Source: Acidobacteriota bacterium
GTDB lineage: Bacteria > Acidobacteriota > UBA6911 > RPQK01 > JADFOI01
Length of the DNA stretch: 64,000 bases
Assembly: GCA_963663035.1 (NCBI GenBank)
Contig: OY760074.1
Span: 2,624,001 to 2,688,000, forward strand
Direction: 5' to 3'
In this document: in pieces, positions 1,569 to 49,694 of the stretch
Layout of the letters: the number at the start of each line of letters is the position of its first letter
How positions within the stretch are numbered: position 1 is the first letter of the stretch
Made by a program: the position numbers and the translations under genes
The notes under the pieces: generated by a model
The model's input: only the letters and a program-made list of their open reading frames with translations
Told to the model about the DNA's origin: nothing
Database searches by the model: none

Positions 1569-2708
1569 ATGCCCATGCAACCAGCTGTTGACCTGAATAG
1601 CGCCCAAGACCTGGAACAGATGTGTGCGGATGCCGCCAGGATTCGGGACCGCGCCAAGGGTCGGATCATCAGCTTCTCCCCAAAGGTCTTTATCCCCCTC
1701 ACCCAACTTTGCCGGGATGTCTGCACTTATTGCACCTTCCGAGAAGCTCCGCAGCAGGCCAAGAGAATTTACATGACTCCTGAGGAGGTGTTGGAAGTGG
1801 CCCGCGCGGGCCAACGGGCAGGCTGTCGAGAAGCTCTTTTTGTCCTGGGAGAAAGACCCGAGCAACGCTATCCGGAGGCGAGAAGCTGGCTGCGGACTGA
1901 AGGCTATGACAGCACCATCGAATACCTGGTCAAGATGTGCGAGCTGGTGCTCAAGGAGACAGATCTTTATCCTCACAGCAATCCCGGAACAATGACTCGA
2001 GGTGAGCTGGAGGCTCTCAAAGACAGCAACGTATCCATGGGCTTGATGCTGGAAAACACCAGTGCCCGGCTAGCTGGGCCCGGTGGTCCCCACCAGCACG
2101 CCCCCAGCAAACGTCCCGAGGTACGTCTGAGAACCCTTGAGCTTGCCGGAGAGCTGCAAATCCCTTTTACGACCGGTCTTCTGATCGGGATAGGGGAGAC
2201 GCCCGAAGAGCGAATCGAGACCTTGCTGGCCATCAAGGATCTACAGGATCGCTATGGCCACATCCAGGAAGTGATCCTTCAGAACTTTCGCGCCAAGCCC
2301 GCAACGAAGATGGAAAAGGCCTCTGAGCCCTCTCATCTGGAAATGCTGGAAACAGTTGCCCAGGCCCGAATCATTCTGGGTGCCCAGATGAATATCCAGG
2401 TGCCACCCAACCTCTCCTCGCAGTACCTGGATTATCTGGACGCCGGAATCAACGACTGGGGAGGAATCTCACCGGTCACCCGAGATTATGTCAACCCCGA
2501 AGCCTCCTGGCCCCATCTCATCCAGCTGAAACAGGAAATGCACACTCGCGGATATGAGCTGCGAGCCCGCTTTCCCGTCTACCCAGAGTACATTCTGCAG
2601 AGATCTCACTTTCTCCCCCCATCACTCCTGGAGCAACTTCGCCGCGAAGCCGATTCACAAGGTTACTTTGCAGGCAATGAGAGGCACGATCATGAGAGAA
2701 CGGCTTGA
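1569..2708 (+). CDS. cofG: FO synthase subunit CofG (radical SAM)
   Basis: SFSPKVFIPLTQLCRDVCTYCTF (CxxxCxxC), PFTTGLLIGIGET, IQVPPNL, DWGGISPVT motifs. Confidence 0.9.
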   Translation: MPMQPAVDLNSAQDLEQMCADAARIRDRAKGRIISFSPKVFIPLTQLCRDVCTYCTFREAPQQAKRIYMTPEEVLEVARAGQRAGCREALFVLGERPEQRYPEARSWLRTEGYDSTIEYLVKMCELVLKETDLYPHSNPGTMTRGELEALKDSNVSMGLMLENTSARLAGPGGPHQHAPSKRPEVRLRTLELAGELQIPFTTGLLIGIGETPEERIETLLAIKDLQDRYGHIQEVILQNFRAKPATKMEKASEPSHLEMLETVAQARIILGAQMNIQVPPNLSSQYLDYLDAGINDWGGISPVTRDYVNPEASWPHLIQLKQEMHTRGYELRARFPVYPEYILQRSHFLPPSLLEQLRREADSQGYFAGNERHDHERTA

Positions 2709-3975
2709 GCGCTGCCTGAAAGTAGCCGGGAAGCAGGTTGCCGGCATTCTGGACCGATCGCTTCAAGATCAGGATCTGACCGAGGACCAGATCGTTGACC
2801 TGTTTGATTCCAGGGGTGAGGATTTCTGGGCCCTGCTGTCGGCTGCCGACCATCTGCGCCAGGAAACGGTTGGCGAGCAGGTCAGCTATGTGATTAATCG
2901 CAACATCAATTTCACCAACGTGTGCATCAAGCGCTGCAGCTTCTGTGCTTTCAGCCGAACCTATCGCAGTGAAGAGGGATATTTCCTTCCCCAGGAGGAA
3001 ATTCTTAGAAGGGCCCGCGAGGCCTATGAATATGGTGCTACTGAAGTGTGTATTCAAGCAGGTCTCCCTCCCGACATGGAAGGCGATCTCTACATCCGCC
3101 TGTGCCGCGCCATTAAAGAAGCCCTACCCGAGCTCCACATCCATGCCTTCTCCCCCGAGGAGATCCTCTACGGTAGCCAGCGCTCCGGCAGACCGATCCG
3201 CGAGTACCTGTCTGAGCTCAAGAGCGCCGGCCTCGGGAGTCTGCCTGGAACCTCTGCCGAGATACTGGACCAGTCGGTACGGGATCGGATCTCACCGGGA
3301 CGAATCACCACCAGCCAGTGGATAGAAGTGATTCAAACGGCTCATTCCCTGGAGATACCCACCACCTCAACCATCATGTACGGTCACCTGGAGACGAGTC
3401 GGGATTGCGCCCGCCATCTCCTGCTGCTCAGGAACTTACAGCGCCAGAGTCAAGGCTTCACGGAGTTTGTTCCACTGAGCCTGATTCATAGCGAAGCTCC
3501 CATGTACAGGGACGGGTTGATCAAAGGGGTGCGAGCAGGCGCCACCGGCAGGGAAGTTCTGAAAATGCATGCCGTGTCGCGCTTGGTTCTGAATCGGGAC
3601 ATACCCAACATCCAGGTTTCGTGGGTCAAAGAGGGATTGAAGTTGTCCCAGATCTGCCTGACGTCGGGTGCCAATGATCTGGGCGGGACGCTGATTAACG
3701 AAAGCATCTCCACCTCCGCCGGAGCCGCCCATGGACAACTGGTACGTCCCATCGATCTGCGCCGCTGCATCCGAGATGCCGGACGCATTCCAGTGGAGCG
3801 ATCAACCCTCTACCAGGAGCTGCACCGGTTTGAAACTGAAGAAGATGAGTTGCTGAACCCTCTGGACCGCCTCTCTGCCGAAGAAGCCAGCCGCTTCGGC
3901 TCCTACCATCAACTCACCAAGATGGATCGCTTCCGTTTTCTGGGCACCAAGAGGGTCCCAGAATTAGTTCCATGA
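2692..3975 (+). CDS. cofH: FO synthase subunit CofH (radical SAM)
   Basis: NRNINFTNVCIKRCSFCAF, SLPGTSAEILD, NIQVSWVKEG, ANDLGGTLINESIS; overlaps cofG. Confidence 0.88.
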   Translation: MRERLERCLKVAGKQVAGILDRSLQDQDLTEDQIVDLFDSRGEDFWALLSAADHLRQETVGEQVSYVINRNINFTNVCIKRCSFCAFSRTYRSEEGYFLPQEEILRRAREAYEYGATEVCIQAGLPPDMEGDLYIRLCRAIKEALPELHIHAFSPEEILYGSQRSGRPIREYLSELKSAGLGSLPGTSAEILDQSVRDRISPGRITTSQWIEVIQTAHSLEIPTTSTIMYGHLETSRDCARHLLLLRNLQRQSQGFTEFVPLSLIHSEAPMYRDGLIKGVRAGATGREVLKMHAVSRLVLNRDIPNIQVSWVKEGLKLSQICLTSGANDLGGTLINESISTSAGAAHGQLVRPIDLRRCIRDAGRIPVERSTLYQELHRFETEEDELLNPLDRLSAEEASRFGSYHQLTKMDRFRFLGTKRVPELVP

Positions 3976-7386: not shown

Positions 7387-8040
7387 CTACTTTTTGGCCT
7401 CGACCTCAGCCAGAAATGTCAGGAGTTGGCTTTGTTCTTCAGCAGACAGCTGTAGAAACATCAAAGCCACTAAATGGAGATCTTCTCCTTTATCTTTGAC
7501 CGGTTCAGATCGAACGACCCATCCCACCACAGTCACTTCCTGTGACGAAGATAAGCTGAGGTGCATCTCCAGTTTATCCTCCCTTTGCAAGGGAAGTGGG
7601 GTTTCAAAGGCCAACCCGCCGATACTGATATTCTGGATCGTGGAGTTCCGGACTTTCTCGTCAATGAGCTCAGTTTCAGCAGCATCAATGACGGTGAAAG
7701 AGAAAGGGATAGGCAAACGAACCCGGAAGGATTTCCTTCGCTGCAGAGTTGAGCTGCGGCCCACGGCGATGGTCACGTGCCGGCTCTCGGGGCCGGCGAC
7801 CTTGATAACCTGTGAGTCCCAGTAATACAGGACAGCCTTTGTATCCCAGTACTTGATCTCAACCTTCTCCCCTTCTTGGAGAGAGGTCTTTGAGGATGGC
7901 CTGGAAACCTCCAACCGCAGCAAACCCGGGGAGATGGCAACAACGGTAGCTGCCAGCTCCAGCTTTGACTCCCCTTGAACGGATATGGCCATCCCGATCT
8001 TCAGGTAAAGATCGAGGCCTTCAGCGTCCACTTTACTCAT
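7387..8040 (-). CDS. PilZ-domain c-di-GMP receptor (YcgR-like)
   Basis: QRRKSFR (RxxxR) and NISIGG (D/NxSxxG) motifs. Confidence 0.85.
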   Translation of the reverse strand: MSKVDAEGLDLYLKIGMAISVQGESKLELAATVVAISPGLLRLEVSRPSSKTSLQEGEKVEIKYWDTKAVLYYWDSQVIKVAGPESRHVTIAVGRSSTLQRRKSFRVRLPIPFSFTVIDAAETELIDEKVRNSTIQNISIGGLAFETPLPLQREDKLEMHLSLSSSQEVTVVGWVVRSEPVKDKGEDLHLVALMFLQLSAEEQSQLLTFLAEVEAKK

Positions 8041-8085
8041 TGGCCATGCTCTACAGAATGGTACATCAGGACAACGGCCAGGGAT

Positions 8086-8111
8086 AGACCGGATTATGCA
8101 TAATCCGGTCT
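8086..8111. repeat. Perfect 26-bp palindrome matching MITE-A terminal repeats
   Basis: AGACCGGATTATGCATAATCCGGTCT; contains the stop codon of the recombinase. Confidence 0.9.
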
Positions 8112-9164
8112 TTCCCGTTTCTCGTCTTTCTGGGCGCGACTGTAGCGGACCACGTGCTGCAGGGATCGGTGTCCCAGCAGCTTCGCCACCAGGGTCGGGT
8201 CACCGCTCTTTCTGAGCTGCTCCAGGGCAAAGGCATGGCGGAGTCGATGGGGATAGAGCTTCATTGGCGCCCGGTAGTGGATGCGGGCATGCTCGGCCAC
8301 CTTCCGAAGGAGAGCGTGAACATGCTGTCGCGAGATTTTGTTGGCATAGCGGTTTAAAAACAGCCAGCGAGGATCCGGATGTTGCCAGGGAGCCGATTTT
8401 TCGATTCGTCGCCTGGCCTGCTCAGAAAAACCTTCGTATTGAGCACAGAGACGGGCACTCGCCCTCTGCCGAAGGGCCCGATAGCCGTCCAGTTTTGCCC
8501 TGGCCGGCGCGGGCACATAAGCATCACGGAAGTGGCTCCCTTTGGCCGGAAAGCTCCTTAGCCATTCGCCGTCATAATGCTTCACCTCCAGATTGCAGAG
8601 TTCAGTCACTCGCAGGCCCACGGCATAAAGCAGATGGACAATGGCCTCGTCGCGCGCCGCTTCCCAACCGGGCTTCATACGTGAAAGGTCCTGGATGGAT
8701 TTAAACAGCCGCTTCACCTGAAACCGATCCAGACCTTTGGCTTCGGGCGGGTCCCGGGGCACGTTTTTCACACCCCAGACGGGGCACTCCCCGTCAAATG
8801 CCCGCTGCTCCTCACAGTAGCGGCCAAAATGCTTGACCGTGGCCAGAAAACGATTGACCGTGGCCGGCTTATAGCCCTGGGCCAGCAACTCCTCACGAAA
8901 ATTCTCCGTATCCCGCCGGCACCAGAAGGTGATCTCGGAGGATCGATTCCACTCCATGAAAAACCGGTAAAAGAGGGAGAGATCGCGGGCCTTGGCCTTC
9001 CAGGTGTGGAGAGAGCCCACGCCTGCAACGCGCTCGTCCAGATAGCGGCGGATCCAGTAGGCGAGATCCTGGCTGTGCTCCTTTGGGCCGAGGAACGGTT
9101 CCGATCCCTCTAAAATCTTATGTAACCGGAAATCAGCCAGTTGTACCAGGTCGTGTTCAGCCAT
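8094..9164 (-). CDS. Tyrosine recombinase (Xer/integrase family)
   Basis: ATVNRFLATVK, GLRVTEL (R), AKG (K), HRLRH (HxxR), LLGH, RY: full catalytic set present. Confidence 0.92.
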   Translation of the reverse strand: MAEHDLVQLADFRLHKILEGSEPFLGPKEHSQDLAYWIRRYLDERVAGVGSLHTWKAKARDLSLFYRFFMEWNRSSEITFWCRRDTENFREELLAQGYKPATVNRFLATVKHFGRYCEEQRAFDGECPVWGVKNVPRDPPEAKGLDRFQVKRLFKSIQDLSRMKPGWEAARDEAIVHLLYAVGLRVTELCNLEVKHYDGEWLRSFPAKGSHFRDAYVPAPARAKLDGYRALRQRASARLCAQYEGFSEQARRRIEKSAPWQHPDPRWLFLNRYANKISRQHVHALLRKVAEHARIHYRAPMKLYPHRLRHAFALEQLRKSGDPTLVAKLLGHRSLQHVVRYSRAQKDEKRERPDYA

Positions 9165-9188
9165 TTACCCAGCAATCTTACCCACTTC

Positions 9189-9216
9189 GGGTAACATAAG
9201 ATTTATTATGTCAGGC
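9189..9216. other. dif-like recombination site (11-6-11)
   Basis: GGGTAACATAA-GATTTA-TTATGTCAGGC, compared with E. coli dif GGTGCGCATAA-TGTATA-TTATGTTAAAT; 24 bp upstream of the recombinase ATG. Confidence 0.7.
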
Positions 9217-9273
9217 AAAGCACACCCGTAGTGTCTTTTGCTATGATTGATTTCGCAAAAGGAGGCACGATTC

Positions 9274-9612
9274 ATGAAAAAACAATCCATTCTTTTTCTC
9301 TTTCTGATGGTCCCGCTGCTGGGAACTCTCCTGGTCAATCAGGCCCATGCTCAAAGCGCCCAGCGCACAGGAGAGGTCATCATTATCGATGCAGAGAAGA
9401 AATCCTTCGTGGTCAGGACTGCCCGGGGACGGACCAACATCCTGACGACTGACGAAACCGTCTTCAAGAAGGGGGAAGAGGAACTCGGGTTCGAAGACCT
9501 AACGGTTGGTACCAGCCTGCTCGTCATGGGTGTCCGCAGCGGCGCCGATGTGGAGGCTCGAGAGGTGACGGTGCAAGCCGAAGAGGCTGCCCCAGCCGAC
9601 GACAGGATGTGA
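9274..9612 (+). CDS. Small exported beta-rich protein (DUF5666/OB-like)
   Basis: AGGAGG RBS; signal peptide ending AHA. Confidence 0.7.
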   Translation: MKKQSILFLFLMVPLLGTLLVNQAHAQSAQRTGEVIIIDAEKKSFVVRTARGRTNILTTDETVFKKGEEELGFEDLTVGTSLLVMGVRSGADVEAREVTVQAEEAAPADDRM

Positions 9613-9661
9613 CAGCGGATTCCTTATACAGGAGTTGATCGAACGGGGGGGATGGAATCCG

Positions 9662-11128
9662 ATGCCTGTTTTTCTACTACTCTTCTTTCTGTTGCTTCTC
9701 AGTGGCTGTTCCAGTCCCACCCAACAGACCGTTGGCCAGGGCCAGTTGCCAGCGGGAAAGATCGTGCTGACGGGCGGAACGCTCATTGACGGGACCGGCA
9801 GAGGGCCGGTAGAGAACGCCACGGTGGTCATTGCTGGTAACAGGTTCGAAGTGATCCTGAGCGGCGATGGAAACCAATACGAGCTTGAACCCAACACCCG
9901 AGTGATTCAGGTTGAGGGAAAGTATCTGTTACCGGGTCTCATCGATGGGCATGTCCATTATCTGGGTTGGGCCGGTCCCTTATACTTGGCCCAGGGAGTC
10001 ACCTCGGTCCTCGACCTGGGAAACTATACTCCCTGGATCCTGGCCCAGAAGTTTGCTGTTGCCAATGATTTAGTGCCCGGACCCAGAATCTTCACCTCTG
10101 CCGGACAGATCGATAGTCCCCCCGGCACCTTCCCACACAGCGTCAACGCCGCCACCGAAGAGGAAGCCAGAGAGATCGTCAGAGCACACGCTGGCCGGGG
10201 TGCGGATTACATCAAAGCCTACACCATGATCCGGCCGGAACTCTTGGAAGCCATCATCGAGGAAGCCCGTGCTGCGGATCTTGTGGTGAGGGGACACATC
10301 ACCGTCAGCGCCCGAGAGGCTGCTCTCTTTGGCATCGCCAGTCTGGAGCACATGAGTGGCATTGCCATTGCCACCATAGATGATCCGGAGATCCTTCAGG
10401 AGATTGAGCAGAGAAGGACGGAGCCGGAATACGTCATGGAAACTGTTCGTGAACTGGCACCGCTCATGCAGCCCGAATTGTTCGATGACTTGATCGAACT
10501 CATGGTCAGGCAGGGAACCGCCCTTTCCCCCACCCTTGTCAGCTGGTGGATGGGAGTCCATCCCCACACCCGGGAATACGAAGAGCAGGACCAAGCTTTT
10601 CTCCAGGACCCCAGGCTGTCCTTTATCCCCGAAGTTTCTCGACAAAGCATCGTGGGGCGGTATTCTCGCGCCAGGAGCGATCGCTCAGACCCCAAGTTCG
10701 AGGTGGGCTATGCCAGGTCACAGGAGTTTATCAAGGCTTTTTTAGAGGCTGGCGGTACGGTGATCGCGTCTTCGGACACCACTTTGGGAGCCATGCCGGG
10801 TCTGGACCTTCACCGCGAGTTGGAGCTGCTGGTGGACTCCGGACTCTCGCCCCTGCAGGCATTGCAGGCCGTCACCAGAAATCCTGCCCAACTCATTGGT
10901 CAGGGTCACGAGCTGGGAACAATCGAATCAGGCAAACTGGCGGACCTCATTGTCCTGGGAGGCGATCCTCTCCAGGACATCCGCAATACGCAGATGATCG
11001 AGCTGGTCATCAAGGACGGTGAAGTCCTGGACATCGAATTGGACGCCCAGTTCCAGGATCTAATCCCTCGTCCCCTTCCCGCAGACTATCTCAGCCGTTT
11101 TAGCACAGATGAGCAGACCGTTCCCTAG
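9662..11128 (+). CDS. Amidohydrolase family lipoprotein
   Basis: LLSGC lipobox, PGLIDGHVH, SLEH, ASSD, GKLADLIVL. Confidence 0.9.
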   Translation: MPVFLLLFFLLLLSGCSSPTQQTVGQGQLPAGKIVLTGGTLIDGTGRGPVENATVVIAGNRFEVILSGDGNQYELEPNTRVIQVEGKYLLPGLIDGHVHYLGWAGPLYLAQGVTSVLDLGNYTPWILAQKFAVANDLVPGPRIFTSAGQIDSPPGTFPHSVNAATEEEAREIVRAHAGRGADYIKAYTMIRPELLEAIIEEARAADLVVRGHITVSAREAALFGIASLEHMSGIAIATIDDPEILQEIEQRRTEPEYVMETVRELAPLMQPELFDDLIELMVRQGTALSPTLVSWWMGVHPHTREYEEQDQAFLQDPRLSFIPEVSRQSIVGRYSRARSDRSDPKFEVGYARSQEFIKAFLEAGGTVIASSDTTLGAMPGLDLHRELELLVDSGLSPLQALQAVTRNPAQLIGQGHELGTIESGKLADLIVLGGDPLQDIRNTQMIELVIKDGEVLDIELDAQFQDLIPRPLPADYLSRFSTDEQTVP

Positions 11129-11668: not shown

Positions 11669-14068
11669 ATGGGAATTTCCCGGAAACACGTCTCTGGCCT
11701 CCACGGACTGAGAAGGGGCATCCTCCTCGTTGGCTTCCTCACCACCTTCACCACTCTCTTCAGTCAGGAATCCCCGCCCCAGGGCAAAGTGGTGAGCGCC
11801 CACTATACTGAGTCCTTCATTTCCATCGACGGCAGCTTGTCCGAAGCCGCCTGGGCGACAGCCCCGCCCGTCAGAGGCTTTATTCAAACGGATCCATCGG
11901 AAGGAAAACCCGCCACGGAATGGACCGAGGTGAAGGTTCTCTACGATGACAAGAACCTCTATATCAGCGCCTATTGCCACGATCGACAGCCCAAGGACAT
12001 CGTCGTCCACGATATCACCAGAGACTTTGAATGGTTAGAGGAGTTAGAGGAGGATGAGATCGACTACCAAGTCGTGAATAACTGGCTAAACCAGGATCTC
12101 TTCGGTTTCCAACTGGACACCTTCAACGATGACCGAAACGGCTTCGTGATGGCCACCAGCCCCGAGGGGGGACAACGGGATGTTCAATTTTTTAACGAAG
12201 GCCGAAATGTGAACTTTGCCTGGGTAGGAGTCTGGCAGGTCGAAGTGCAAATGCACGACGATGGCTGGACAGCAGAATTCGCTATTCCTTTCGAGACTTT
12301 GAGCTTCAGTAAAGAGGATTTCCAGGTCTGGGGAATCAACTTCTTCCGGCTGCTCCGACGCAGAAATGAGTTAACCTGGTGGTCACCTGTTCCGCGCCGA
12401 TACGGCTTCTTCCAGGTCTCCCGCGCCGGCGAGTTGAGAGCCCTGGAAAGAGTCGACCAGGGTGCCCAACCACCCAGCGATGAGTCCTCGCGGGGGGCAG
12501 CCTCTCAGTGGCAATCCAGTAACTTCCGGATCTCCCCGGCTGGCTTCTTGACCGTCCTGCAAGGGCAAGGACGGGGAGGAGGAGGGCGAGCAGACAGTGA
12601 ACAGGACAGCGGACGCCTGAAGCTCAAACTCTATTCCCTGGCAGGCATGGAACAGTTCCGCTCCCGAGGGCTGCAAACCCAGGAGGTCTTCGATGGGGGC
12701 GTGGATATCAAATACGGCTTGACCTCGGGCCTGACTCTGGACTTGACCTTCAACCCCGATTTTGCCTTCGTAGAGGTGGACGTCAAAAAGAAGGCCAACT
12801 TGACCAAGTTCCCCACCTCTTTCCCTGAAAAACGCGACTTTTTTCGTGAAAATGCCGGGCTCTTTCAATTGGGGGAGACCTACCGCCTGGGGCCTCGCAG
12901 GAAGAAGGAGGCCACTCTTTTCAGAAGCAGGCAGATCGGGCTCTCAGATAGAGGCGCACCCATTCCCATCTGGGGTGGTGCGCGGCTGACTGGCCGGGTT
13001 GGGCCCTACTACCTGGGTTTCATGACCGTTCAGACCAGGTCTGAGGATGATTTACCAGGGGACAACTTCACCGTGGCACGGTTCAAGCGAGACTTTCTGG
13101 CCAACTCCGACATCGGTGTGCTGTTAATCAATCGCCAATCGGAGCACCCCAGCGACTATCACCGAACCTATGCCACCGATGTCAATTTCCAGTTCTTCAA
13201 AGACCTGAAATTTAACGCCGTCCTGGCCAAAACCGAAAACCCCAACAGCAGCGGTCAAAATGGGATGGCCACGGCGGAGATGAAATGGCAGAGTAATCTC
13301 TTCCGTGTTCTGGGGGCCTATTCGGAGATTCAGGAAAATTTCGACCCCCAACTGGGATCGGCCAAACGCACCGGGAGGAGGATCGTTCACGCCGAAATGG
13401 GGCTCAGTGCCCGTCTCCAGGAAGAGAGGAACCTGGGATCCCTCATTCGAGATATTTTCCCCCTGCTCATCTCCGATTTCGTGACCCTTCCCAACGGCGA
13501 GACCGAGGTCAAGTTATTGCGTCCCCAGGTGGAGGTCAAATTTCAAGATGGCGGCGGCTTTGTAACCCAGTACATTCAGAACTACAAGCGGGCAGAGAGG
13601 AGGCCCTGCTCCATTTCGCTGTCCCGAGGAGATTACAGGTTCAATGAAGTCCAGGTCCGATATTTCTCCGACAAGAGTAAGGTCCTTTCCTTCGACGCCC
13701 GATTCAAGAAGTGCGACGTCTTTATGCTCGAGAAAAAGACATTCACACTGGCAGGAAAAGTCCAACCCAGTTCCCGCTTTAACATCAGCGGGGACTACGT
13801 GAGAAACCAATTCCAATTGCAGGACGGAGGCCTGGCCACCTATGAGGTGGGCTTTAACATAAAGTACACCTTCACTCCCAAGATGTTTTTGAATGCTGCG
13901 ATCCGCTACAACAATGACAAAAGCCAGGTCGACTCCCACATCCGATTCCGCCTGATCCACCGGACCTCGAGCGATCTGTTTTTTGTCTACAACCAACAGC
14001 GGGATATCGAAGACGAGAGGACCGATCGAGTCCTGGCTCTCAAGTACACCTACCTCTTGGTTTTTTAA
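11669..14068 (+). CDS. CBM9-like + DUF5916 outer-membrane protein
   Basis: IDGSLSEAAW, GWTAEFAIPF, LTFNPDF, FPEKRDFF; C-terminal Phe; paralogue at 49695. Confidence 0.8.
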   Translation: MGISRKHVSGLHGLRRGILLVGFLTTFTTLFSQESPPQGKVVSAHYTESFISIDGSLSEAAWATAPPVRGFIQTDPSEGKPATEWTEVKVLYDDKNLYISAYCHDRQPKDIVVHDITRDFEWLEELEEDEIDYQVVNNWLNQDLFGFQLDTFNDDRNGFVMATSPEGGQRDVQFFNEGRNVNFAWVGVWQVEVQMHDDGWTAEFAIPFETLSFSKEDFQVWGINFFRLLRRRNELTWWSPVPRRYGFFQVSRAGELRALERVDQGAQPPSDESSRGAASQWQSSNFRISPAGFLTVLQGQGRGGGGRADSEQDSGRLKLKLYSLAGMEQFRSRGLQTQEVFDGGVDIKYGLTSGLTLDLTFNPDFAFVEVDVKKKANLTKFPTSFPEKRDFFRENAGLFQLGETYRLGPRRKKEATLFRSRQIGLSDRGAPIPIWGGARLTGRVGPYYLGFMTVQTRSEDDLPGDNFTVARFKRDFLANSDIGVLLINRQSEHPSDYHRTYATDVNFQFFKDLKFNAVLAKTENPNSSGQNGMATAEMKWQSNLFRVLGAYSEIQENFDPQLGSAKRTGRRIVHAEMGLSARLQEERNLGSLIRDIFPLLISDFVTLPNGETEVKLLRPQVEVKFQDGGGFVTQYIQNYKRAERRPCSISLSRGDYRFNEVQVRYFSDKSKVLSFDARFKKCDVFMLEKKTFTLAGKVQPSSRFNISGDYVRNQFQLQDGGLATYEVGFNIKYTFTPKMFLNAAIRYNNDKSQVDSHIRFRLIHRTSSDLFFVYNQQRDIEDERTDRVLALKYTYLLVF

Positions 14069-14327: not shown

Positions 14328-15664
14328 AAGGTTACCTCGGACGGTTACCCCAGCCGTTCCAGCAAATGGTCGGTCACACGCAGGGCATTGGCCATAATGG
14401 TTAGGGCCGGGTTCACGGCTGAACTGGAGACAAAGAAACTCCCATCCACAACGTACAGGTTGTCCAGATCATGAGCTTTGCAATTCAGATCCAGAGCTGA
14501 AGTCTTCGGATCGGGACCGAAGCGGATGGTGCCATTCTGGTGCGCTGTACCAGCCAGGGGAATCTTCTTGCCCAGATAAAGAGCAGTGGGAATCAGGTGA
14601 CTCTCGCAATTGATCTCCTTGAGCATACCCTTGAGTTTGGCAACCAGGCGCTTATGCCCCTCCTCGTAATTTTCCTTATAGCGCAGCACGATCTCCCCTT
14701 GAGAGTTGAGGCTCACACGATTCTCCGGATCCGGCAGGTCTTCTGAAGTGATCCAGAAATCAAGCGCATGTCGGGCCATTAAATCGAGTGTCATCCCGGG
14801 CACCAGCGGCGGTGCTTCAGCTTTGAGCATCTCGCCATTGGACTTTCCCAGCATCTGCAGATGGCCCAACGGATACTCAAAGTCGTCCGATCCAAAGTAG
14901 TAATCATTCAGGCCGATCGTCTTTTGAAAGATGGTGGGATTGGGTCTTTTTGAAATAGCCAGAAAGGCTGAATTGTTGTGGGCCATATAGTGCCTGCCGA
15001 CCATGTCAGAACTGTTGGCCAGGCCATTGGGATGCTGATCGTTGGCCGAGCGCAGCAGCAGTGCGGCGGAATTGACGGCACCACAGGCCACCACCACGAT
15101 ATCCGCTGAGAAGGCTTGGCTTCCGCCCTCGCCTTGGGCGACGACCTTGGCGACCTCACGCCCCGAGGGGTTGGTTTCCAGGCGAATAACCTTGGTGTGG
15201 GTGAGAAGGGTGACGTTTTCGTGTTGTAGAGCCGGCTCGACACACAGGACGTGTGCGTCGGATTTGGCGTGAATCAGGCAAGGGAATCCGTCGCAGGTAT
15301 CGCATCGGATACAGCGGCTCTTCTGGGGATCGGCCTCATCCAGCATGATCCCCACCGGCAGAGGAAATGGGGTGTGACCGATGCGTCTCAAATCATCCGC
15401 CAGCTCCTGAATGCGCGGCTCGTGACTCACAGCCGGATAAGGATAGGGTTTACCTGCGGGCGGCTCCGTGGGATCGCTCCCGCGCTCCCCGTGCACTTGA
15501 TAGAGCTGCTCGGCCCGGGTGTAGTAGGGCTCGAAGTCTTCATAGCTCAGCGGCCAGGCGGGAGAAAGCCCCCCGTGGTGCTGGATCTCCCCGAAATCTT
15601 CCTTGCGCAAACGAAACAAAACGGCACCATACACCTGACCTGCCCCCACGAACGAGTCCACCCT

Positions 15665-16561
15665 CTATGCTAGACCCGGGACCATTTGAAGTCCACTCCA
15701 AGGGATTGGATCCAGTGCCTGCGACCTAGGTAGTTTGGCCTCTGGCGCCGGCGGCCGATAGGCCAAGGCGCTGTGAGGCCGGATCTGATTGTAATCCCTC
15801 CGCCAGCGTTCTACCAACACCTTGGCTTCCCCCAGCGTGTCGAAGATCTCCATGTTCAGCAGCTCATCCCGTAGTTTCCCGTTGAAACTCTCAATGTACC
15901 CATTCTCCCAGGGGCTGCCCGGCTCGATGTACAAGGTCCTTACCCCAACAGCCTGCAGCCAGTCCCGGACCGCCTGTGCCGTAAACTCCGATCCGTTATC
16001 GGACCGGATAAACTCAGGCACTCCCCGATCAACGAATAACTCCGCCAGCCGGTCCAACACGTCTTGGTGATTCATCTGCCGTTTCACATCAATGGCGAGG
16101 CACTCTCTGGTGTACTCATCCAGGATCGTCAATAGCCGAAAGGCTCGCCCATCATGGGTCCGTTCATGCACGAAATCATAGCTCCAGACGTGGTTCTTGC
16201 GAGCCGCTCGTAACCGAACACAGGAACCGTCATTAAGCCACAGCCTCCTTCGTTTCGGCTGTCTGGACGGGACTTTCAGCCCTTCTTGTCTCCACAGCCT
16301 CTCCATCCGCTTAGGATTCCCCTTCCACCCTTCCCCATGAAGTATCGCCGTGACCCGCCGGTAGCCATAACGCCCGTATTGCGTAGCCAACTCCACCATC
16401 CGGGCCACCAATCGGGCCTCATCATCGGGAATTTGCCTTTCCCTTCGCTGGGTCGATCGAACCTGTCCCAGCACTTGGCAGGCCCGACGTTCGGAGACTC
16501 GCTCTGCTCCTAATCGCTCTCGTACCCACATCACCGCTCGTCTCCTGTTCGCCGGGCCTAG
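15665..16561 (-). CDS. IS3 transposase OrfB (DDE integrase core), expressed via frameshift
   Basis: [30 protein letters not shown] motifs. Confidence 0.92.
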
Positions 16562-16836
16562 AAGTTTCCCGAGGACACTTCCTTCAGGATCTGCTTGTCC
16601 AAAGACAGATCCGCCACCAGCTTCTTCAACCGGGTATTCTCCTTCTCCAACACCTTCAACCTCTTGGCCTGGTCCAACCGGAGCCCTCCGTACTCTTTGC
16701 GCCACCGGTAGTAGGTCTGCTCGCTCACCCCCATCTGCTTCGACACCTGTCCCACCCTCTGTCCTTGGGCCAGACCCACCTCTGCCTCACGCAGCTTCAT
16801 GATGATCTGTTCTGCCCTAAACCGCTTCCCTGCCAT
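16558..16836 (-). CDS. IS3 transposase OrfA (HTH)
   Basis: [16 protein letters not shown]...[18 protein letters not shown]; ends at GGGAAAC putative -1 frameshift site. Confidence 0.92.
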
Positions 16837-17171
16837 CCTTGCCTCCTTCCTAAACCGGAAATCCTAACATTCAAACTGGACTCGTTTTAGGGGGCAAGGT
16901 CACACCTTGGTATTGCCACCCACGTAGTAATGGATCCCGGGATGAAATTCCTTGCCATCCTTGTCGTACCAGGTCTCCTGGGCCTTATACTTGGACTGGG
17001 TGAAAACAGCACGAGTTTCCCAGTTGTCTTTCTCCCGTGGCAGGTATCCCCCACGCTCCAGCAGCAAAATGCGCTTGCCCGAGGGGGCCAGAGCGTGAGC
17101 CAGTGTTCCTCCCCCTGCACCGCTGCCAATGATGATCAGATCATAGTGGTTGTTTTCAGGCATTTTTTCCT

Positions 17172-23219: not shown

Positions 23220-24629
23220 ATGCTCAGCTTGAAGAAGTCCTCGCCTTTGCTTATTTGCTTCCTGATGGCAGCTGGATTGAGTTTGCCGGCCCGGGGACAG
23301 ACAACCCCCACCCTACCGGTCAGCACCGCGTCCCTTGTTGCCGTGGAGGGCGCGACCCTGATTGACGGGACAGGAGCGGCGCCGGTTCCCAATACCACCC
23401 TGCTCATTGAAGATGGCCGCATTCGCCAGATCGGCAGGCGCGGGGAGGTGCCGATTCCCCCCGGCGCACAGATCATTCAAGCTGACGGCAAATACCTTAT
23501 CCCCGGCTTAATCGATGCTCATGTTCATTACAACGCCCCATTTCTGCATCGGCTCTATCTGGCCCACGGAGTCACCACGGTTCGCGATGTGGGCACTTCC
23601 CTGGAGCGAATCCTCACCCTGCGTGAAGAAATTGCCACGGGCAATATCCTGGCCCCCCGCTTGTTTACCACCGGAGGATCCATCAACACTCGCTCGCTCA
23701 GAGCCGCCGGTGTGAGTGCCCGCGAGATGACCGAAAGGCTGGCGGAAGCGGGGGTGAACGGAATCAAGGTCACGGGTTACAACGAAGAGGAACTCAAGGA
23801 CATTCTGGAAGTTGCCCACGCCCATGGATTGCTGGTTTTTGGACATACCCGTCTTGATCCCGGTGCCCTCCGGGCTGTCCAGATCGGACTGGACGGGATC
23901 GAGCATGTCACCGATTTACTGGAGGATTGCGTTGAAGAAAACCCTCCCTTTCCTATGGATTTCGACTGGGACCGCCGCGACCATTTCTTCCGTTACTACT
24001 ACAGCCAGCTTCATCGCGCCGTCAACCGCACCAAGATGGATGAAATCATCCAGTTGATGGTTCAAAACGACGTCTACCTGGATCCCACCCTGGTGAACTA
24101 CAATCGCGGCTTTGTCCAGCGCGGCACAGCGCAACTGGTGGCAGATCCAGCTTTTCGATACATGCCGGAAGAATATGATCGCTCCGATCGTTATGGGGAG
24201 TATGGACCGCTGGACCGAGAGCACTGGACCAAGACCTTCGCGCTGATGCAGGAAGCCACTTACAAGTTTTTCAAGGCGGGCGGGTTCCTGCTCATGGGAA
24301 CCGATTCTCAAGCCGCCGCCCCCGATGGCGCCCTTCCCGGCTGGAGCATGCATCAGGAGCTGGAGTTTTTCGTCGATGCCGGTCTCACTCCCATGGAAGC
24401 ACTGCAGACGGCCACTTTCAATAACGCCAAGGTGATGAAGCAGGAAAAGGACCTGGGCTCGCTGGAAACAGGAAAATATGCTGATCTGGTCATCCTGGAC
24501 GCCAACCCTCTAGAAAACATCAGTAACACCCAGAAGATCCATCTGGTCATCAAAGATGGTCTGGTGCTCGATCCGCAGGCTCTCCTGCGGGAACACATCA
24601 AGCACTTCGGAGAAAGGGAAATGCCTTAG
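23220..24629 (+). CDS. Exported amidohydrolase family protein
   Basis: Signal peptide, PGLIDAHVH, GIEH, MGTD, GKYADLVIL. Confidence 0.9.
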   Translation: MLSLKKSSPLLICFLMAAGLSLPARGQTTPTLPVSTASLVAVEGATLIDGTGAAPVPNTTLLIEDGRIRQIGRRGEVPIPPGAQIIQADGKYLIPGLIDAHVHYNAPFLHRLYLAHGVTTVRDVGTSLERILTLREEIATGNILAPRLFTTGGSINTRSLRAAGVSAREMTERLAEAGVNGIKVTGYNEEELKDILEVAHAHGLLVFGHTRLDPGALRAVQIGLDGIEHVTDLLEDCVEENPPFPMDFDWDRRDHFFRYYYSQLHRAVNRTKMDEIIQLMVQNDVYLDPTLVNYNRGFVQRGTAQLVADPAFRYMPEEYDRSDRYGEYGPLDREHWTKTFALMQEATYKFFKAGGFLLMGTDSQAAAPDGALPGWSMHQELEFFVDAGLTPMEALQTATFNNAKVMKQEKDLGSLETGKYADLVILDANPLENISNTQKIHLVIKDGLVLDPQALLREHIKHFGEREMP

Positions 24630-29819: not shown

Positions 29820-30257
29820 ATGACTAGGAACTCTCAATCAGGCTTTACCATTCTCGAAGCCATGGTGGTCGTCGTCTTTGCCAGCGTCATTCTCAGTATC
29901 GCCGTCCCCAAGCTTCAGGTCATCCTGGATTACTACAGTCTGACCTCTTCGGCAAACCTGGTGGCCAGTGAATTAAGTGCAGGTCGCGCCCTGGCCGTCT
30001 CACGAAACTGGATCTACGACGTGAGCCTGGACACCGGGAATAGCACCATTCAGATTATCGATCCCAACGACCCTGACAATTCCCCACGAACGGAGAAAAA
30101 CCTCGAGTCAGGAGACTCCTTTTCAACAGTGCCGGCAACCTCGATACGGTTTTATTCGCGCGGTCATGCCCGAGGTGGGACCATTGTTCTGGTGAACGAA
30201 TCGGGTTACACCATCTCGATCATCGTCAGCCCTTCGGGGAAGATCGAGAAGAGCTGA
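29820..30257 (+). CDS. Type IV minor pilin FimT/GspH-like
   Basis: G|FTILE prepilin cleavage motif. Confidence 0.85.
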   Translation: MTRNSQSGFTILEAMVVVVFASVILSIAVPKLQVILDYYSLTSSANLVASELSAGRALAVSRNWIYDVSLDTGNSTIQIIDPNDPDNSPRTEKNLESGDSFSTVPATSIRFYSRGHARGGTIVLVNESGYTISIIVSPSGKIEKS

Positions 30258-30263
30258 TCTGTT

Positions 30264-30695
30264 ATGAGACCATCAAGGATCTCGAAGGAAAAAGGCTTTA
30301 GCTTAATCGAGAATATGCTGGCCGTGGCAGTTCTAGCCATCAGCGTGCTGGCACTCGGTCAACTGATGTCAGTGGCAGTTCGGCAAAACGCCTTCACCCG
30401 GGTCGAGACCATGAGCACCGCTATCGCTCAAGAGAAGTTGGAGACACTCAGAGCGGTGTACAACCGGGAGCTGGAAACGGAGACTGCTTCGGCTGACCTC
30501 ACCACCGGTTTGCACGGGCCGCAAATGATGACGATGCAGGCACCCGCAGAGAGCAGCATGGGAGACAGCGAGTTTCAGGTCTCCTGGACGGTCACGATAG
30601 CAGGAACAACCAAAACCGTCGATGTGACCATAGAGCCCCAGGACTCAAACGAGCTGAACAGCGACTTGAACCTGACGACCGTTCTTGTGCCATGA
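30264..30695 (+). CDS. Type IV minor pilin PilV-like
   Basis: G|FSLIE motif; operon position. Confidence 0.85.
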   Translation: MRPSRISKEKGFSLIENMLAVAVLAISVLALGQLMSVAVRQNAFTRVETMSTAIAQEKLETLRAVYNRELETETASADLTTGLHGPQMMTMQAPAESSMGDSEFQVSWTVTIAGTTKTVDVTIEPQDSNELNSDLNLTTVLVP

Positions 30696-31351
30696 CCCCA
30701 TCGCGTTCCGGATTCCACACCTGCAGTCGCGGCTTCACCCTGATCGAAATGCTCGTCTCCAGCGCGGTGCTCGTTTTGATCGCGGGGGCCCTTGGTTCCA
30801 TTCTGTCCCAGAGTCAACACTCCTACAAGTCCCAGCAATCTATCCTGGAAGTAACTCAAGAAGCCCGGGCCGCCATGGATCAGCTTTGCGCCTATCTGCG
30901 ACAGGCAGGCAATGATCCGCAGGCCTATATGAGAACCAACAACATCCCACCCATTGAACTCCTGGGCGTCGACCACATCCGCATTAACAGCGACATTACC
31001 GGATCTGTGCCGGCTGCCGGAGGCGATCCTCTGGAGGCCACCGGAGACCCCGACGGGTCTTTGGACAACCTCTATGAACGGGTGGAGGTCCGCTACAATC
31101 CTCTCCTGGAGAACCTTCAATTGGACATCGGCCATGGAGTGGAGGTGCTGGCTGAAAACCTATACTGCGACTTCACTTTTTTTGATATCAACGGCAATGT
31201 CACCGCTGTAGAGGACGACATTGTTCGGGTTCGAGTCGAGATGGTGGCAGAGACCGAAGACATCGATCTACAGACAGGTAAGATCCACAGTATCACCCTG
31301 GAATCGGAAGTGATGCTGCGAAGTCAATCTTTTGACCTCTTTGCAAACTAG
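30692..31351 (+). CDS. Type IV minor pilin PilW-like
   Basis: G|FTLIEML motif, LRQAG; ATGA overlap. Confidence 0.85.
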   Translation: MTPSRSGFHTCSRGFTLIEMLVSSAVLVLIAGALGSILSQSQHSYKSQQSILEVTQEARAAMDQLCAYLRQAGNDPQAYMRTNNIPPIELLGVDHIRINSDITGSVPAAGGDPLEATGDPDGSLDNLYERVEVRYNPLLENLQLDIGHGVEVLAENLYCDFTFFDINGNVTAVEDDIVRVRVEMVAETEDIDLQTGKIHSITLESEVMLRSQSFDLFAN

Positions 31352-31374
31352 GACGAGTTTCTCGGAGAAATCTC

Positions 31375-32847
31375 ATGCAACATTTAAAGGATGAATCGGG
31401 TGTCTCTCTTTTGATCGTGACCATCGTTTCGATTCTGATGGCCCTCCTGGGAATGTCAATGATCTTTGACAGCATGACTGAGGTGACCATAAGCAATGAA
31501 CTGGAAAACCAAAAGAAGGCCCGACTGAATGCCGAAACAGGTTTTAGTACTGTCAAAGATGCACTGCGACAGACCAATCTGACTGCCGTTTTGCAGTCCA
31601 CAACCGACGTTCCAAGATACATGAACTACTCGGTTCCTGGCGCGGGCACGGTGGCTGAGGATTATTTTCTGCGCAACCCCATCGCTCCCAAGGAAGCGAT
31701 GAATATTGACTTCGAGAGTCCGCCCGCCCGATTGGCCACCCGAACCGTCAACGGCTTTCTGACACCTGGAGAGGGCACACCGCTGGCTTCTGGCGGGAGA
31801 TACTGGGCCAAGATCACTGATAACGACGACGGAGATGGTAATCTGACCACCGATGTGGATGGCATCGTCTATCTTCGTACCATCGGGATCCAAAGACTGG
31901 GAGCGGGTCAGATCACAACTTATGGGGGAACCGTCAAGAACTCTGTGGGCATCATTCAGTCCACCTTGAAGCGGGACCAGACTTTAGCTGCCAAAGCACC
32001 CTTCACCATCTATGGCCCCAACGCTGTGCCCTCACAGGGAGCGAACCTGTTTGCGGGAAACTCTTTTAATATCGATGGATTTGACCACCCCACCATGACG
32101 CTGGCCGACCTTCAAGCCGGGATCCATTCTCACACCACAGATGCAGATGGTGATGGCTTTCCCGATGATACGGCCGGTATTGACGCGGTTTTTGACAACG
32201 CCGGAGGTGGAGATGGCACCCCCCTCAGAGACACGATTCACGGTGATCTGAATGGAGGCCAGCTCGACAATATTGAGGGCAACCAGTCAGATTACGGTGG
32301 GGAACCTTCCCTGCGGGATGGCACCGACAGGGTCCGTAACGACCCCAACCCGGACGCCACCAATATCTTCAATGCAAGCTACCTGATGAACTTCATCACC
32401 AACACGGCAGCCGTGGCCGATGTCACGCTAGCGGACGGAACCAACTTCGGCGGCAGCGATCTTGGGACCGATGCAGCCCCCCAGATCACCTACTGCGAAG
32501 GGGATTGTAGACTGGGAGGAAACTCCAGCGGCGCCGGCCTGTTGATCGTCCGGGGAGAACTGCGCTTTCAAGCGGGCTTCTCCTATCACGGGTTGATTCT
32601 GGTGGTGGGAGAAGGAGACTTTAATATGACTGGCTCCAACGTGGGCATTTTAGGCGGGCTCCTTGTGGCCAAGACGATCTACAATGCTGGAGATGGCACC
32701 TGGAGCTACGGCACCCCCTCTTTTACCGTCGCCGGCAACAGCAACTTCTACTATCAGGAAGGCGGCGTTGGGCTGGGCTACGGTCTTCTGCCCATCAGAA
32801 AATTGAGTTGGCGGGAAGTGTATCCGGAGATCGAGCCACCCTATTAA
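31375..32847 (+). CDS. PilX-like protein with large Gly/Asp-rich C-terminal domain
   Basis: ESG|VSLL (no Glu5), ARLNAETG, C-terminal SWREV. Confidence 0.8.
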   Translation: MQHLKDESGVSLLIVTIVSILMALLGMSMIFDSMTEVTISNELENQKKARLNAETGFSTVKDALRQTNLTAVLQSTTDVPRYMNYSVPGAGTVAEDYFLRNPIAPKEAMNIDFESPPARLATRTVNGFLTPGEGTPLASGGRYWAKITDNDDGDGNLTTDVDGIVYLRTIGIQRLGAGQITTYGGTVKNSVGIIQSTLKRDQTLAAKAPFTIYGPNAVPSQGANLFAGNSFNIDGFDHPTMTLADLQAGIHSHTTDADGDGFPDDTAGIDAVFDNAGGGDGTPLRDTIHGDLNGGQLDNIEGNQSDYGGEPSLRDGTDRVRNDPNPDATNIFNASYLMNFITNTAAVADVTLADGTNFGGSDLGTDAAPQITYCEGDCRLGGNSSGAGLLIVRGELRFQAGFSYHGLILVVGEGDFNMTGSNVGILGGLLVAKTIYNAGDGTWSYGTPSFTVAGNSNFYYQEGGVGLGYGLLPIRKLSWREVYPEIEPPY

Positions 32848-44897: not shown

Positions 44898-45770
44898 TTA
44901 CAATCCAGTCGTGTCCAGAAGACCCTGTTCTAGAGCTTCTAGTAACAGCAAGTTTTCATCGAATGAGTCCGAATAAGGTCCTTTTGTCATGTTTTCAGCC
45001 AATCGGAATTGATCGCGCTTCCCCGTTTCTTGGGCAGGTATGTCAATGAGAACTTGCTTCGTCTCCTCTGTTGCCAACTGAGCAATGTCTCGCCCAAGAA
45101 GGCGTGCTCCAGCCCGCTCATAATCAAACTCGTCAGCCTTTAAAAGATCATCATGCTCACGAAATAACCGCTCTTGGTGAGTACCAATGTCCATGTAGAC
45201 TCTTAAAAGAAAAGCTAAGTCGAGAGCATCCTTCCCGCGCTCCATGGGTCGGTCGCTCCAGGCAATGAGTTTAAGCGTAGCAAGACCAGCCGGGGTTGCC
45301 ACGAGCACATCTAGTGTTGGGTTAGACCGTAGTCGAACCAAGTGGGCATTTTGATATGCGTCCTCAAATCCGACCACCCTCATTCTTATACTCTGATCTG
45401 GAGGCCAGGCGATTTCGTTTTCCTGTCCCTGAATGTCGCCAAAAGGAACAATGTCTACAGGAATGCCGTTCTGGTAAAGGAGCCGTTGGGTTTCCCTGGT
45501 CGACTCAAAGCCGTCGATCTGGAGCAGCTCCTCTTTTAAGCGTCCAAATTCGGCCCAGTCAGAGACTTGAACCGCTAAATCGATATTCTCGGTTGCCCGT
45601 CCAACAGCAATTCCGTACCCATAGTGAAGGATTAGATCTCGGGCGGTGGCTCCGACAAGAAAAAAACGCATGTCATTCGCAAGAGCAATCGTCACGATCG
45701 CATCCAATATTGCGAGGGTCAACGCGTCAATCTTCCCTGATAAGTCCAGTAAGTTCGCGCTCATAGACAA
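44898..45770 (-). CDS. AbiEii/AbiGii-family nucleotidyltransferase (type IV TA toxin)
   Basis: LVGATARD, RATENID, VDIVPFG, LKLIAWSDR, KDALD; overlaps the antitoxin gene. Confidence 0.85.
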   Translation of the reverse strand: MSMSANLLDLSGKIDALTLAILDAIVTIALANDMRFFLVGATARDLILHYGYGIAVGRATENIDLAVQVSDWAEFGRLKEELLQIDGFESTRETQRLLYQNGIPVDIVPFGDIQGQENEIAWPPDQSIRMRVVGFEDAYQNAHLVRLRSNPTLDVLVATPAGLATLKLIAWSDRPMERGKDALDLAFLLRVYMDIGTHQERLFREHDDLLKADEFDYERAGARLLGRDIAQLATEETKQVLIDIPAQETGKRDQFRLAENMTKGPYSDSFDENLLLLEALEQGLLDTTGL

Positions 45771-49593: not shown

Positions 49594-49694
49594 AAACACA
49601 TCTGATTCCTCCTGACCTCGCTGCTGCATACCAAGCGCTTTTCGAGCTGAGATCCATTAGCCTCAAGAACCCAATTCCTATATCCTACGTCCTC

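Follow-up and report, generated by a model that had tools for sequence, protein, structure and literature searches.

A recombinase gene beside a dif-like site

We analysed a 64-kb stretch of an Acidobacteriota contig (positions 2,624,001 to 2,688,000 of OY760074.1, assembly GCA_963663035.1; this whole stretch is hereafter the window), in which the gene for a Xer-like tyrosine recombinase of 356 amino acids (P0001) lies beside a 28-bp site resembling dif. The elements of this locus are as follows, in window coordinates, with L001 and L002 denoting two related loci described below.

9189..9216, minus strand: 28-bp dif-like core site, with the left arm at 9216-9206, the centre TAAATC at 9205-9200 and the right arm at 9199-9189
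9192..9213, no strand assigned: inner palindrome TGACATAA-N6-TTATGT(T/C)A, its 8-bp arms perfect in L001 and L002 and matching at 7 of 8 positions in the window
8094..9164, minus strand: Xer-like tyrosine recombinase gene, recognised from its open reading frame (ORF), Pfam matches, catalytic residues, AlphaFold2 model and Foldseek matches
8376..8462, minus strand: 29-residue basic insert, codons 235-263 of the recombinase gene, delimited by alignment, profile matches, region lengths and the model
9113..9131, minus strand: third half-site-like copy, GGTTACATAA, codons F12-I17, forming the second arm of an inverted repeat with 9186-9204
9165..9194: three GGGTAA/TTACCC copies, at 9165-9170 (minus), 9178-9183 (minus) and 9189-9194 (plus), specific to the window
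9175..9180, minus strand: TAAGAT, invariant in three loci and 10-11 nucleotides (nt) before the ATG, a candidate -10 box
9274..9612, plus strand: divergent gene, syntenic in L001 and L002, for a small protein weakly matching DUF5666; GGAGG lies 8 nt ahead of the ATG
7387..8040, minus strand: PilZ-domain gene downstream of the recombinase, syntenic in L001 and L002, listed for context only

Read on the minus strand from 9216 to 9189, the site is GCCTGACATAA-TAAATC-TTATGTTACCC, followed by GAAGT-GGGTAA-GATTGCT-GGGTAA and the ATG of the recombinase at 9164. This agrees letter for letter with a preliminary description of the locus, and the 11-6-11 core with inner CATAA and TTATG arms which that description had recognised is likewise confirmed. 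The site stops 24 nt short of the start codon, within a 109-bp intergenic region between the recombinase and the divergent gene, and has a G+C fraction of 0.36 against about 0.56 for the window; dif itself is described as low in G+C and intergenic in PMC2731167. The core CATAA-N6-TTATG occurs once on the two strands of the window, against 0.02 occurrences expected from dinucleotide-preserving shuffles, 2 of 100 of which contained any match. Versions of the core with one mismatch are present at 26560 and 36443, both without the arms, and a search for 8-6-8 palindromes, tolerating 3 or fewer mismatches across the 16 specified positions, found no second site or attL/attR partner in the 64 kb.

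Compared with the dif of E. coli (taken from strain MG1655, locus L006), the site is identical at 17 of 28 positions, with 6 of these falling in the left arm and 3 in the centre; the right arm, in which the stretch TTATGTTA is common to both, contributes 8 (of 11). In the window the two arms of the site agree at 8 of 11 positions, and in both L001 and L002 at 9 of 11, with 6-8 matches running contiguously from the centre, while the corresponding values for E. coli dif are 6 of 11 and 5 contiguous. Such symmetric arms would fit a single protein binding both of them. Comparing each arm with the XerC and XerD arms of E. coli dif proved non-discriminating (6-7 versus 7-8 of 11). The site is unlike the difH sequences printed in PMC2731167, where difH is described as resembling difSL. 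Judged by its bases, the site is a look-alike of the classical type of dif with unusually symmetric arms.

The site is conserved with the recombinase gene in related loci

A contig scan matched 49 stretches, which resolved into five loci, L001-L005, with L001 and L002 being true relatives of the locus in the window. L001 comes from a metagenome-assembled genome (MAG) of the Acidobacteria and encodes a protein 91% identical to P0001, and L002, of only 2.3 kb and from the MAG of an uncultured bacterium, encodes one that is 72% identical. L003 and L004 (Nitrospirae, 28% identity) and L005 (a 27-residue fragment) represent another kind of integrase, lack a dif-like core and differ in context; they were rejected as members of the family and left out of the conservation count, which thus covers three loci: the window, L001 and L002.

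In the three-way alignment of these loci 26 consecutive nt (TTTGCCTGACATAATAAATCTTATGT) are invariant. This block consists of 3 bases upstream of the site and the first 23 bases of the site itself, and all 6 central bases are identical in the three loci; the remainder of the right arm shows 1 or 2 differences among them. From the site to the ATG there are 24, 24 and 25 nt in the window, L001 and L002, respectively. Elsewhere the intergenic sequence of L002 resists alignment, and on the side of the divergent gene L001 carries about 50 additional nt, the distance from the site to that gene being variable. L001 is collinear with the window for about 10 kb (from about 5 to 15.6 kb in the window), and the two have in common the genes for an epimerase, TerB-like, PilZ, recombinase, DUF5666-like, amidohydrolase and CBM9/DUF5916 proteins and a GMC oxidoreductase; in L002 the same genes flank the recombinase on both sides. 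The persistence of an invariant block and a fixed spacing while the flanking DNA diverges indicates, at the level of these alignments, that the site is tied to the recombinase gene, under selection and inherited in a stable chromosomal neighbourhood. The view of recombinase and site as one unit, first put forward in the preliminary description, is thereby strengthened.

That description had also taken the GGGTAA repeats for accessory elements of the site. The local cluster of three copies is indeed present in the window, and the 28-bp site is conserved in all three loci, but the repeats are not. L001 keeps one GGGTAA, the second being replaced by GAGGAA, a Shine-Dalgarno-like sequence and plausible ribosome-binding site, and L002 has zero copies. 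Moreover, the window as a whole contains about as many GGGTAA matches as expected (19 versus 17.5). Given this lack of enrichment and the loss of the cluster in L001 and L002, we rejected an accessory-site role for these repeats.

The recombinase and its insert

P0001 matches the Pfam models Phage_integrase (PF00589, E 6.7e-23) and the N-terminal SAM-like Phage_int_SAM_1 (PF02899, E 4.6e-06), and all six residues of the R-K-H-R-H-Y set attributed to it earlier were found: R185, K208, H306, R309, H332 and Y341. R185 and K208 do not vary among the 96 rows of an alignment of relatives, in which H306, R309 and Y341 are at least 90% conserved; H332 is at least 90% conserved in a 10-row alignment of the family. 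An AlphaFold2 run on the 10-row alignment gave a poor predicted local distance difference test score (pLDDT 57.3), and the model that we used, built from the 96 rows, has a mean pLDDT of 91.1 and a predicted template modelling score of 0.85. Foldseek comparison with the PDB identified it as an ordinary two-domain tyrosine-recombinase fold, with the lowest E-value for the archaeal XerA (5hxy_A, 2.7e-11) and the top template modelling score (TM-score) for the XerH-difH complex (5jjv_A, 0.66); IntI4, Cre and lambda Int follow, and then the Tn1549 integrase too. The Foldseek probability is 1.00 for XerA, XerH, Cre, IntI4 and lambda Int. By its R-K-H-R-H/W-Y set and two-domain fold P0001 is a member of the tyrosine recombinase superfamily.

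Two observations made alongside concern this protein and its gene. The best PDB sequence match of the P0001 family profile is chain 14 of 9i5v (E 1.8e-21, 401 residues), which is labelled 'Ribosome-associated translation inhibitor RaiA' yet aligns as a Xer-like tyrosine recombinase, so that the label appears inconsistent. At 8087-8110, overlapping the recombinase stop codon, there is a perfect 24-bp palindrome (12+12, no spacer) that holds TTATG joined directly to CATAA. It is not found at the corresponding place in L001 or L002, in which the C-terminus of the recombinase differs too, and could be a terminator-like hairpin or a small insertion.

The preliminary description had remarked on an extra basic segment of about 30 residues, which proved to be real and 29 residues long. 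These residues, 235-263, are missing from P0010, the nearest insert-free relative (33% identity). The region equivalent to residues 215-275 measures 61-63 residues in 9 of the 96 rows (P0001-P0007, P0009 and P0038), 57 in one row and 30-50 in the other 86, 33 being the most frequent length. When the family profile is matched to XerD and other solved recombinases, the match breaks into two stretches around the insert, and in the model of P0001 the insert makes the helix at 219-245 longer and adds a further helix at 248-257.

We then considered where P0001 belongs among the named families. The best NCBIfam models are those for XerC, XerD and XerA: it scores 118.3 bits with XerC (TIGR02224, cut-off 335.15) and 109.2 bits with XerD (TIGR02225, cut-off 329.6), in each case about a third of the cut-off, and 104.7 bits with XerA (NF040815, cut-off 220). 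The XerS model (NF003462) yields 47.8 bits against a cut-off of 267 and covers residues 264-351 only, and the integron integrase models TIGR02249 and NF011946 yield 33.4 bits against 265 and 20.7 against 435. By these curated cut-offs P0001 lies outside the XerC, XerD, XerA, XerS and IntI equivalogs. A word-indexed protein search returned 36 proteins at E<=1e-3 among 3290 candidates, of which only eight (P0002-P0009) are close relatives of P0001, at 42-92% identity, the next standing at 33%. An exhaustive search of 50%-identity representatives returned 12731 proteins at E<=1e-3, 679 at <=1e-10 and 15 at <=1e-30, and a search of the ESM Atlas with P0001 gave generic integrase clusters only.

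A quick maximum-likelihood tree (IQ-TREE) was computed from 98 rows, comprising 96 relatives and the E. coli XerC and XerD, and was rooted at the midpoint for drawing only; it includes no references for XerS, XerH, XerA, IntI or TnpI, for which the NCBIfam scores stand in. The E. coli XerC and XerD sit in a clade of 12 rows with a Shimodaira-Hasegawa-like approximate likelihood-ratio test value (SH-aLRT) of 99. The nine insert-bearing proteins form, together with P0039, a group of 10 rows (SH-aLRT 93) that is nested in a separate clade of 72 unnamed recombinases (SH-aLRT 97). The proposal that P0001 might simply be the host XerC or XerD is thus contradicted both by scores under the cut-offs and by a position outside the E. 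coli XerC/XerD clade.

Relationship to known recombinase-site pairs

Several known systems share parts of this arrangement. One is XerS/difSL of streptococci and lactococci, with a single Xer-type recombinase of the same 356-residue length whose gene adjoins a dif-type site, the pair being treated as one genetic module (PMC5357621). The differences lie in the protein, which matches the XerS model over 264-351 only (47.8 versus 267 bits), and in the site, difSL being 31 bp long with an 11-bp centre (PMC5357621) whereas the present site is 11-6-11 by sequence symmetry, with CATAA/TTATG. XerS/difSL itself is located at the terminus (PMC2731167) and FtsK-dependent (PMC2965235).

In XerH/difH of Campylobacter and Helicobacter there is again one recombinase only, and in many cases a few tens of bp separate its gene from the site; distances of 16, 52, 66 and 125 bp are given for four species in PMC2731167. 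The palindromic arms, the 6-bp centre and the best TM-score of the model (0.66 to 5jjv_A) add to the likeness. However, sequence similarity to XerH extends over the C-terminal catalytic part only (profile match at residues 264-351, E 1.1e-10), and the difH arms, of the TGAAAAC/TTTTCAA type (PMC2731167), are unrelated to those found here. The archaeal XerA/dif systems, too, have a single recombinase acting on a 28-bp dif, and some species have a xerA/dif module; the archaeal dif is not always opposite the origin (PMC5357621). XerA is also the protein with the best Foldseek E-value (5hxy_A, 2.7e-11). The distinctions are the score with the XerA model (104.7 versus 220 bits) and the host, which is bacterial in the present case (Acidobacteria, as in L001 and P0008).

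With the XerC/XerD-dif system the likeness lies in the site, which is of the classical dif type, with 17/28 identity to E. coli dif and the right-arm TTATGTTA, and in the best NCBIfam models. Against this, P0001 reaches only about a third of the cut-offs of these models, falls outside the E. coli XerC/XerD clade and has about 32 extra N-terminal residues in addition to the 29-residue insert. Its gene abuts the site, whereas the classical recombinase genes are scattered over the chromosome (PMC2731167), and within the 64 kb there is one gene rather than two.

Finally, the TnpI/IRS pair of Tn4430 and the IntI/attI pair of integrons also have the recombinase gene beside its own site. The core of two inverted motifs with extra binding motifs described for TnpI (PMC2847244) has a possible counterpart here in the third half-site-like copy in the coding sequence. 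Unlike in these systems, there is no transposon or integron around P0001, the integron integrase models score far below their cut-offs (33.4 versus 265 and 20.7 versus 435 bits), and the would-be accessory GGGTAA repeats are not conserved.

A candidate single-recombinase Xer/dif-type module

At each of the three loci a dif-like site with inverted arms, a short centre, low G+C and an intergenic position adjoins the recombinase gene, which is the arrangement of a single-recombinase module. A site beside the gene has been put forward as a possible hallmark of the XerS and XerH systems and of some archaeal xerA/dif pairs (PMC5357621, PMC2731167), and XerL of Legionella indicates that single-recombinase systems exist beyond the known families (PMC9765430). 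By analogy with these systems we favour, at a probability of roughly one half, the reading that the locus encodes a lineage-specific single-recombinase Xer/dif-type module with a layout like that of xerS/difSL or xerH/difH, which would probably function in dimer resolution and perhaps be autoregulated. On this reading the module is chromosomal and vertically inherited in an uncultured lineage of Acidobacteria.

In such a module the 356-residue recombinase would recognise the near-palindromic 28-bp site 24 nt upstream of its own start codon, with one monomer per arm (TGACATAA / TTATGT[C/T]A), as in XerS/difSL, XerH/difH and XerA/dif. By the same analogy, two sites would synapse as a homotetramer and strand exchange would proceed across the 6-bp centre TAAATC. 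As there is one full site per locus, the productive reaction would join the copy on one sister chromosome to that on the other, or the two within a chromosome dimer. TAAGAT may be a -10 box, in which case the mRNA would be nearly leaderless and the dif-like site would lie over the -35/spacer region. With the site placed between the gene and its likely promoter elements, the bound recombinase may damp its own transcription, and autoregulation is plausible as a by-product of the position of the site. We infer the binding, the recombination, the dimer resolution and the autoregulation alike from the known systems.

Some observations weigh against this interpretation. The related loci of which the DNA was examined are only two, and a simple consensus scan of 7900-9700 for sigma-70 promoters returned 0 sites. 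The cumulative G-C skew drops monotonically across the window, with no extremum at 9.2 kb. To separate the effect of gene orientation we used the GC skew at third codon positions in 48 ORFs. Left of the site (9 ORFs) it is -0.109 for plus-strand and -0.032 for minus-strand genes, giving a replication-type component of about -0.07, and right of the site (39 ORFs) it is -0.169 and +0.009, giving about -0.08. The replication-type skew thus has the same sign and size on both sides of the site, and any switch should lie more than 9 kb to its left or more than 55 kb to its right. In PMC2731167 the distance from dif to the skew peak in proteobacteria has a median of 7.3 kb and a third quartile of 21 kb, and the xerH/difH rows consulted span 16-90 kb. 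Hence, the skew lends a terminus location no positive support, yet is compatible with a dif in view of these published distances. In addition, the three published Acidobacteria genomes counted in PMC3025954 all have XerCD orthologues and a predicted dif, which means that the present lineage may have XerCD too.

Alternative interpretations

The palindrome could instead be mainly a transcriptional operator, bound by the recombinase or by an unrelated dimeric regulator, that controls the recombinase gene and perhaps the divergent gene without any biologically relevant recombination. Its position in a 109-bp divergent intergenic region, 24 nt from the ATG, is what one would look for in an operator, as is the conserved TAAGAT 10-11 nt before the ATG in a leader with no Shine-Dalgarno sequence conserved among the three loci; the failure to find a terminus signal points the same way. 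Nevertheless, ordinary operators seldom keep their spacer invariant, whereas here the three loci agree in all 6 central bases, and the sequence is specifically dif-like (17/28 versus E. coli dif) and stands beside a Xer-like gene with intact catalytic residues. Nor is the distance to the divergent gene conserved. As an operator role is compatible with recombination, and autoregulation is already part of the module that we favour, a purely regulatory palindrome strikes us as unlikely.

A further interpretation reverses the roles: the site would be the ordinary chromosomal dif of a XerC/XerD pair encoded elsewhere, and the adjacent recombinase a passenger, for example what is left of an element that integrated at dif and became fixed, or an auxiliary enzyme. 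This agrees with the site being of the classical dif type rather than of the difSL or difH type, with the XerCD of published Acidobacteria genomes (PMC3025954) and with the frequent presence of mobile-element genes near dif that is noted in PMC2731167. It does not readily explain why site and start codon are still 24-25 nt apart at a protein identity of 72%, with the other flank drifting, or why the arms are more symmetric than those of E. coli dif. An integrated element exploiting dif would be expected to leave a second or degenerate site, and none is present in the window, where the terminus signal for a dif location is likewise not found. We regard a passenger recombinase, too, as an unlikely explanation that still deserves consideration.

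Both a bolder version of the module and an RNA-based account draw on the half-site copy within the coding sequence. A 19-nt inverted repeat (17/19) pairs 9186-9204, that is, the right arm and part of the centre, with 9113-9131, which encodes codons 12-17 (F-R-L-H-K-I). The half-site GGTWACATAA occurs without mismatch at only these two places in the window, the right-arm region and codons 12-17, and the coding copy is identical in the three loci. It uses the Leu codon TTA, which is rare (3.7% of Leu codons in 33 window genes); this codon and the exact half-site match are the only points in favour of the copy being a DNA signal. On the other side, the codons of the three recombinase genes agree at 135 of 233 conserved degenerate positions (58%), the run of 15 identical nt at the copy is the 4th longest in the gene, and the peptide motif [H/R]-K-I/K-L/F that it encodes is met again in members of the 96-row alignment that are 34-39% identical. 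The conservation does not exceed that of coding DNA in general and is accounted for by the protein motif. We therefore set a nucleotide-level constraint aside as its explanation, although the copy may in addition serve as an accessory binding site.

In the bolder version the pair would represent an independent lineage of single-recombinase dimer resolution in uncultured Acidobacteria, defined by a near-symmetric classical dif and a recombinase with a 29-residue insert, in which the coding half-site and the promoter-overlapping core provide autoregulation and perhaps a selectivity based on accessory sites of the TnpI/IRS type, rather than one based on the terminus and FtsK. Selectivity of this kind would account for a site away from the skew switch, but we hold the proposal as a whole to be rather unlikely.

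The preliminary description had also allowed for the core of an uncharacterised integrative element. In this reading, which we widened to transposable elements, the pair would be an integrase with an attP/attL-like site. Integrons, Tn4430 and many integrative elements typically keep the recombinase gene beside its site (PMC2847244), and there is a copy of an insertion sequence (IS) of the IS3 family 6.4 kb from the recombinase. Yet the neighbourhoods of L001 (over 5-15.6 kb of the window) and L002 are collinear with that of P0001, and the Pfam scan of 56 ORFs detected no phage, conjugation, integrative conjugative element or integron genes, in line with the earlier remark that no genes of phages or integrative conjugative elements lie nearby, the 1267-bp IS3-family element apart. 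The window genes are metabolic, transport, pilin-like and regulatory by Pfam; no phage, conjugation or transposition genes adjoin the recombinase, and we saw no gene-cassette array, the neighbours being ordinary and syntenic. There is no other tyrosine recombinase in the 64 kb, no tRNA gene in the window and hence no tRNA integration target, no direct repeat flanking the recombinase and its site and, as stated above, no second site. Searches with tblastn gave no close relatives among plasmids (307 records matched, all below 60% identity, with the 15 matches listed at 26-31%) or phages (30 records matched, all below 60%, with the 10 listed at 25-28%). Taken together, these observations make the integrative-element option highly improbable.

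A long RNA hairpin between the upstream arm and codons 12-17, enclosing the start codon and controlling translation, would make use of the 19-nt inverted repeat (17/19) that brackets this codon and of the stable fold of the window leader (-37.7 kcal/mol, z -3.25), but we rejected it as barely credible, since the long-range stem is predicted in the window only and not in the two other loci (z -1.51 for L001, z -0.54 for L002), where a local palindrome hairpin forms instead, the coding-side copy is accounted for by the conserved peptide motif, and the upstream arm would be untranscribed if TAAGAT is the -10 box.

Other features of the window

The IS3-family element is present in two copies of 1267 bp that are 99.8% identical, at 15636-16902 and 55768-57034, with transposase ORFs at 15665-16705 and 55797-56837 that contain rve, rve_3 and HTH_21 domains. 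The first copy lies between the C-terminal part of a GMC oxidoreductase (14345-15661) and an N-terminal NAD-binding piece (16900-17163), and appears to split the GMC oxidoreductase gene. At 44898-46794 there is a pair comprising AbiEii (a nucleotidyltransferase toxin) and AbiEi (an antitoxin/regulator), which constitutes a type IV toxin-antitoxin or abortive-infection module, with a TetR-family gene on one side and an RtcB ligase (47101-48282) nearby.

Two paralogous families are represented: large CBM9/DUF5916 proteins at 11669-14068 and 49590-51863, 26% identical to each other, and amidohydrolases at 9635-11128 and 23220-24629, for which an identity of 34% was obtained by way of the L001 orthologue. 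The region 29820-32847 holds a series of small genes whose products bear N-terminal methylation motifs of the prepilin type, together with a GspH-like pseudopilin and, after these, a 490-residue ORF with no Pfam match, and is probably a minor-pilin cluster of a type II secretion system or type IV pilus. Two radical-SAM ORFs, 1569-2708 and 2554-3975, the second with a CofH/MqnC C-terminal region, share about 150 nt; the mechanical ORF list has probably misplaced either the start of the latter or the end of the former.

Implications for Xer-type recombination

Single-recombinase Xer systems have been found only a few times, namely XerS, XerH, XerA and XerL, and each of them has informed our understanding of the control of dimer resolution and of the exploitation of dif by mobile elements. 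A full-text literature search, mostly of papers outside the subscription journals, found no such module described for Acidobacteria. While the scheme itself is known, what is new in the present case is a recombinase that belongs to no named family by curated cut-offs, a site of the classical type and a family-specific 29-residue insert. Should the genome also have XerCD and a terminus dif, the pair would be an unexplained second dif-like system and of narrower interest; should the site truly lie away from the terminus, the question would arise how resolution is restricted to dimers. If the favoured reading is true, it would extend the list of single-recombinase systems to the Acidobacteria, a poorly studied phylum, with a sequence-distinct family that uses a classical-type dif, and would offer a compact gene-plus-site pair that is directly testable in E. 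coli.

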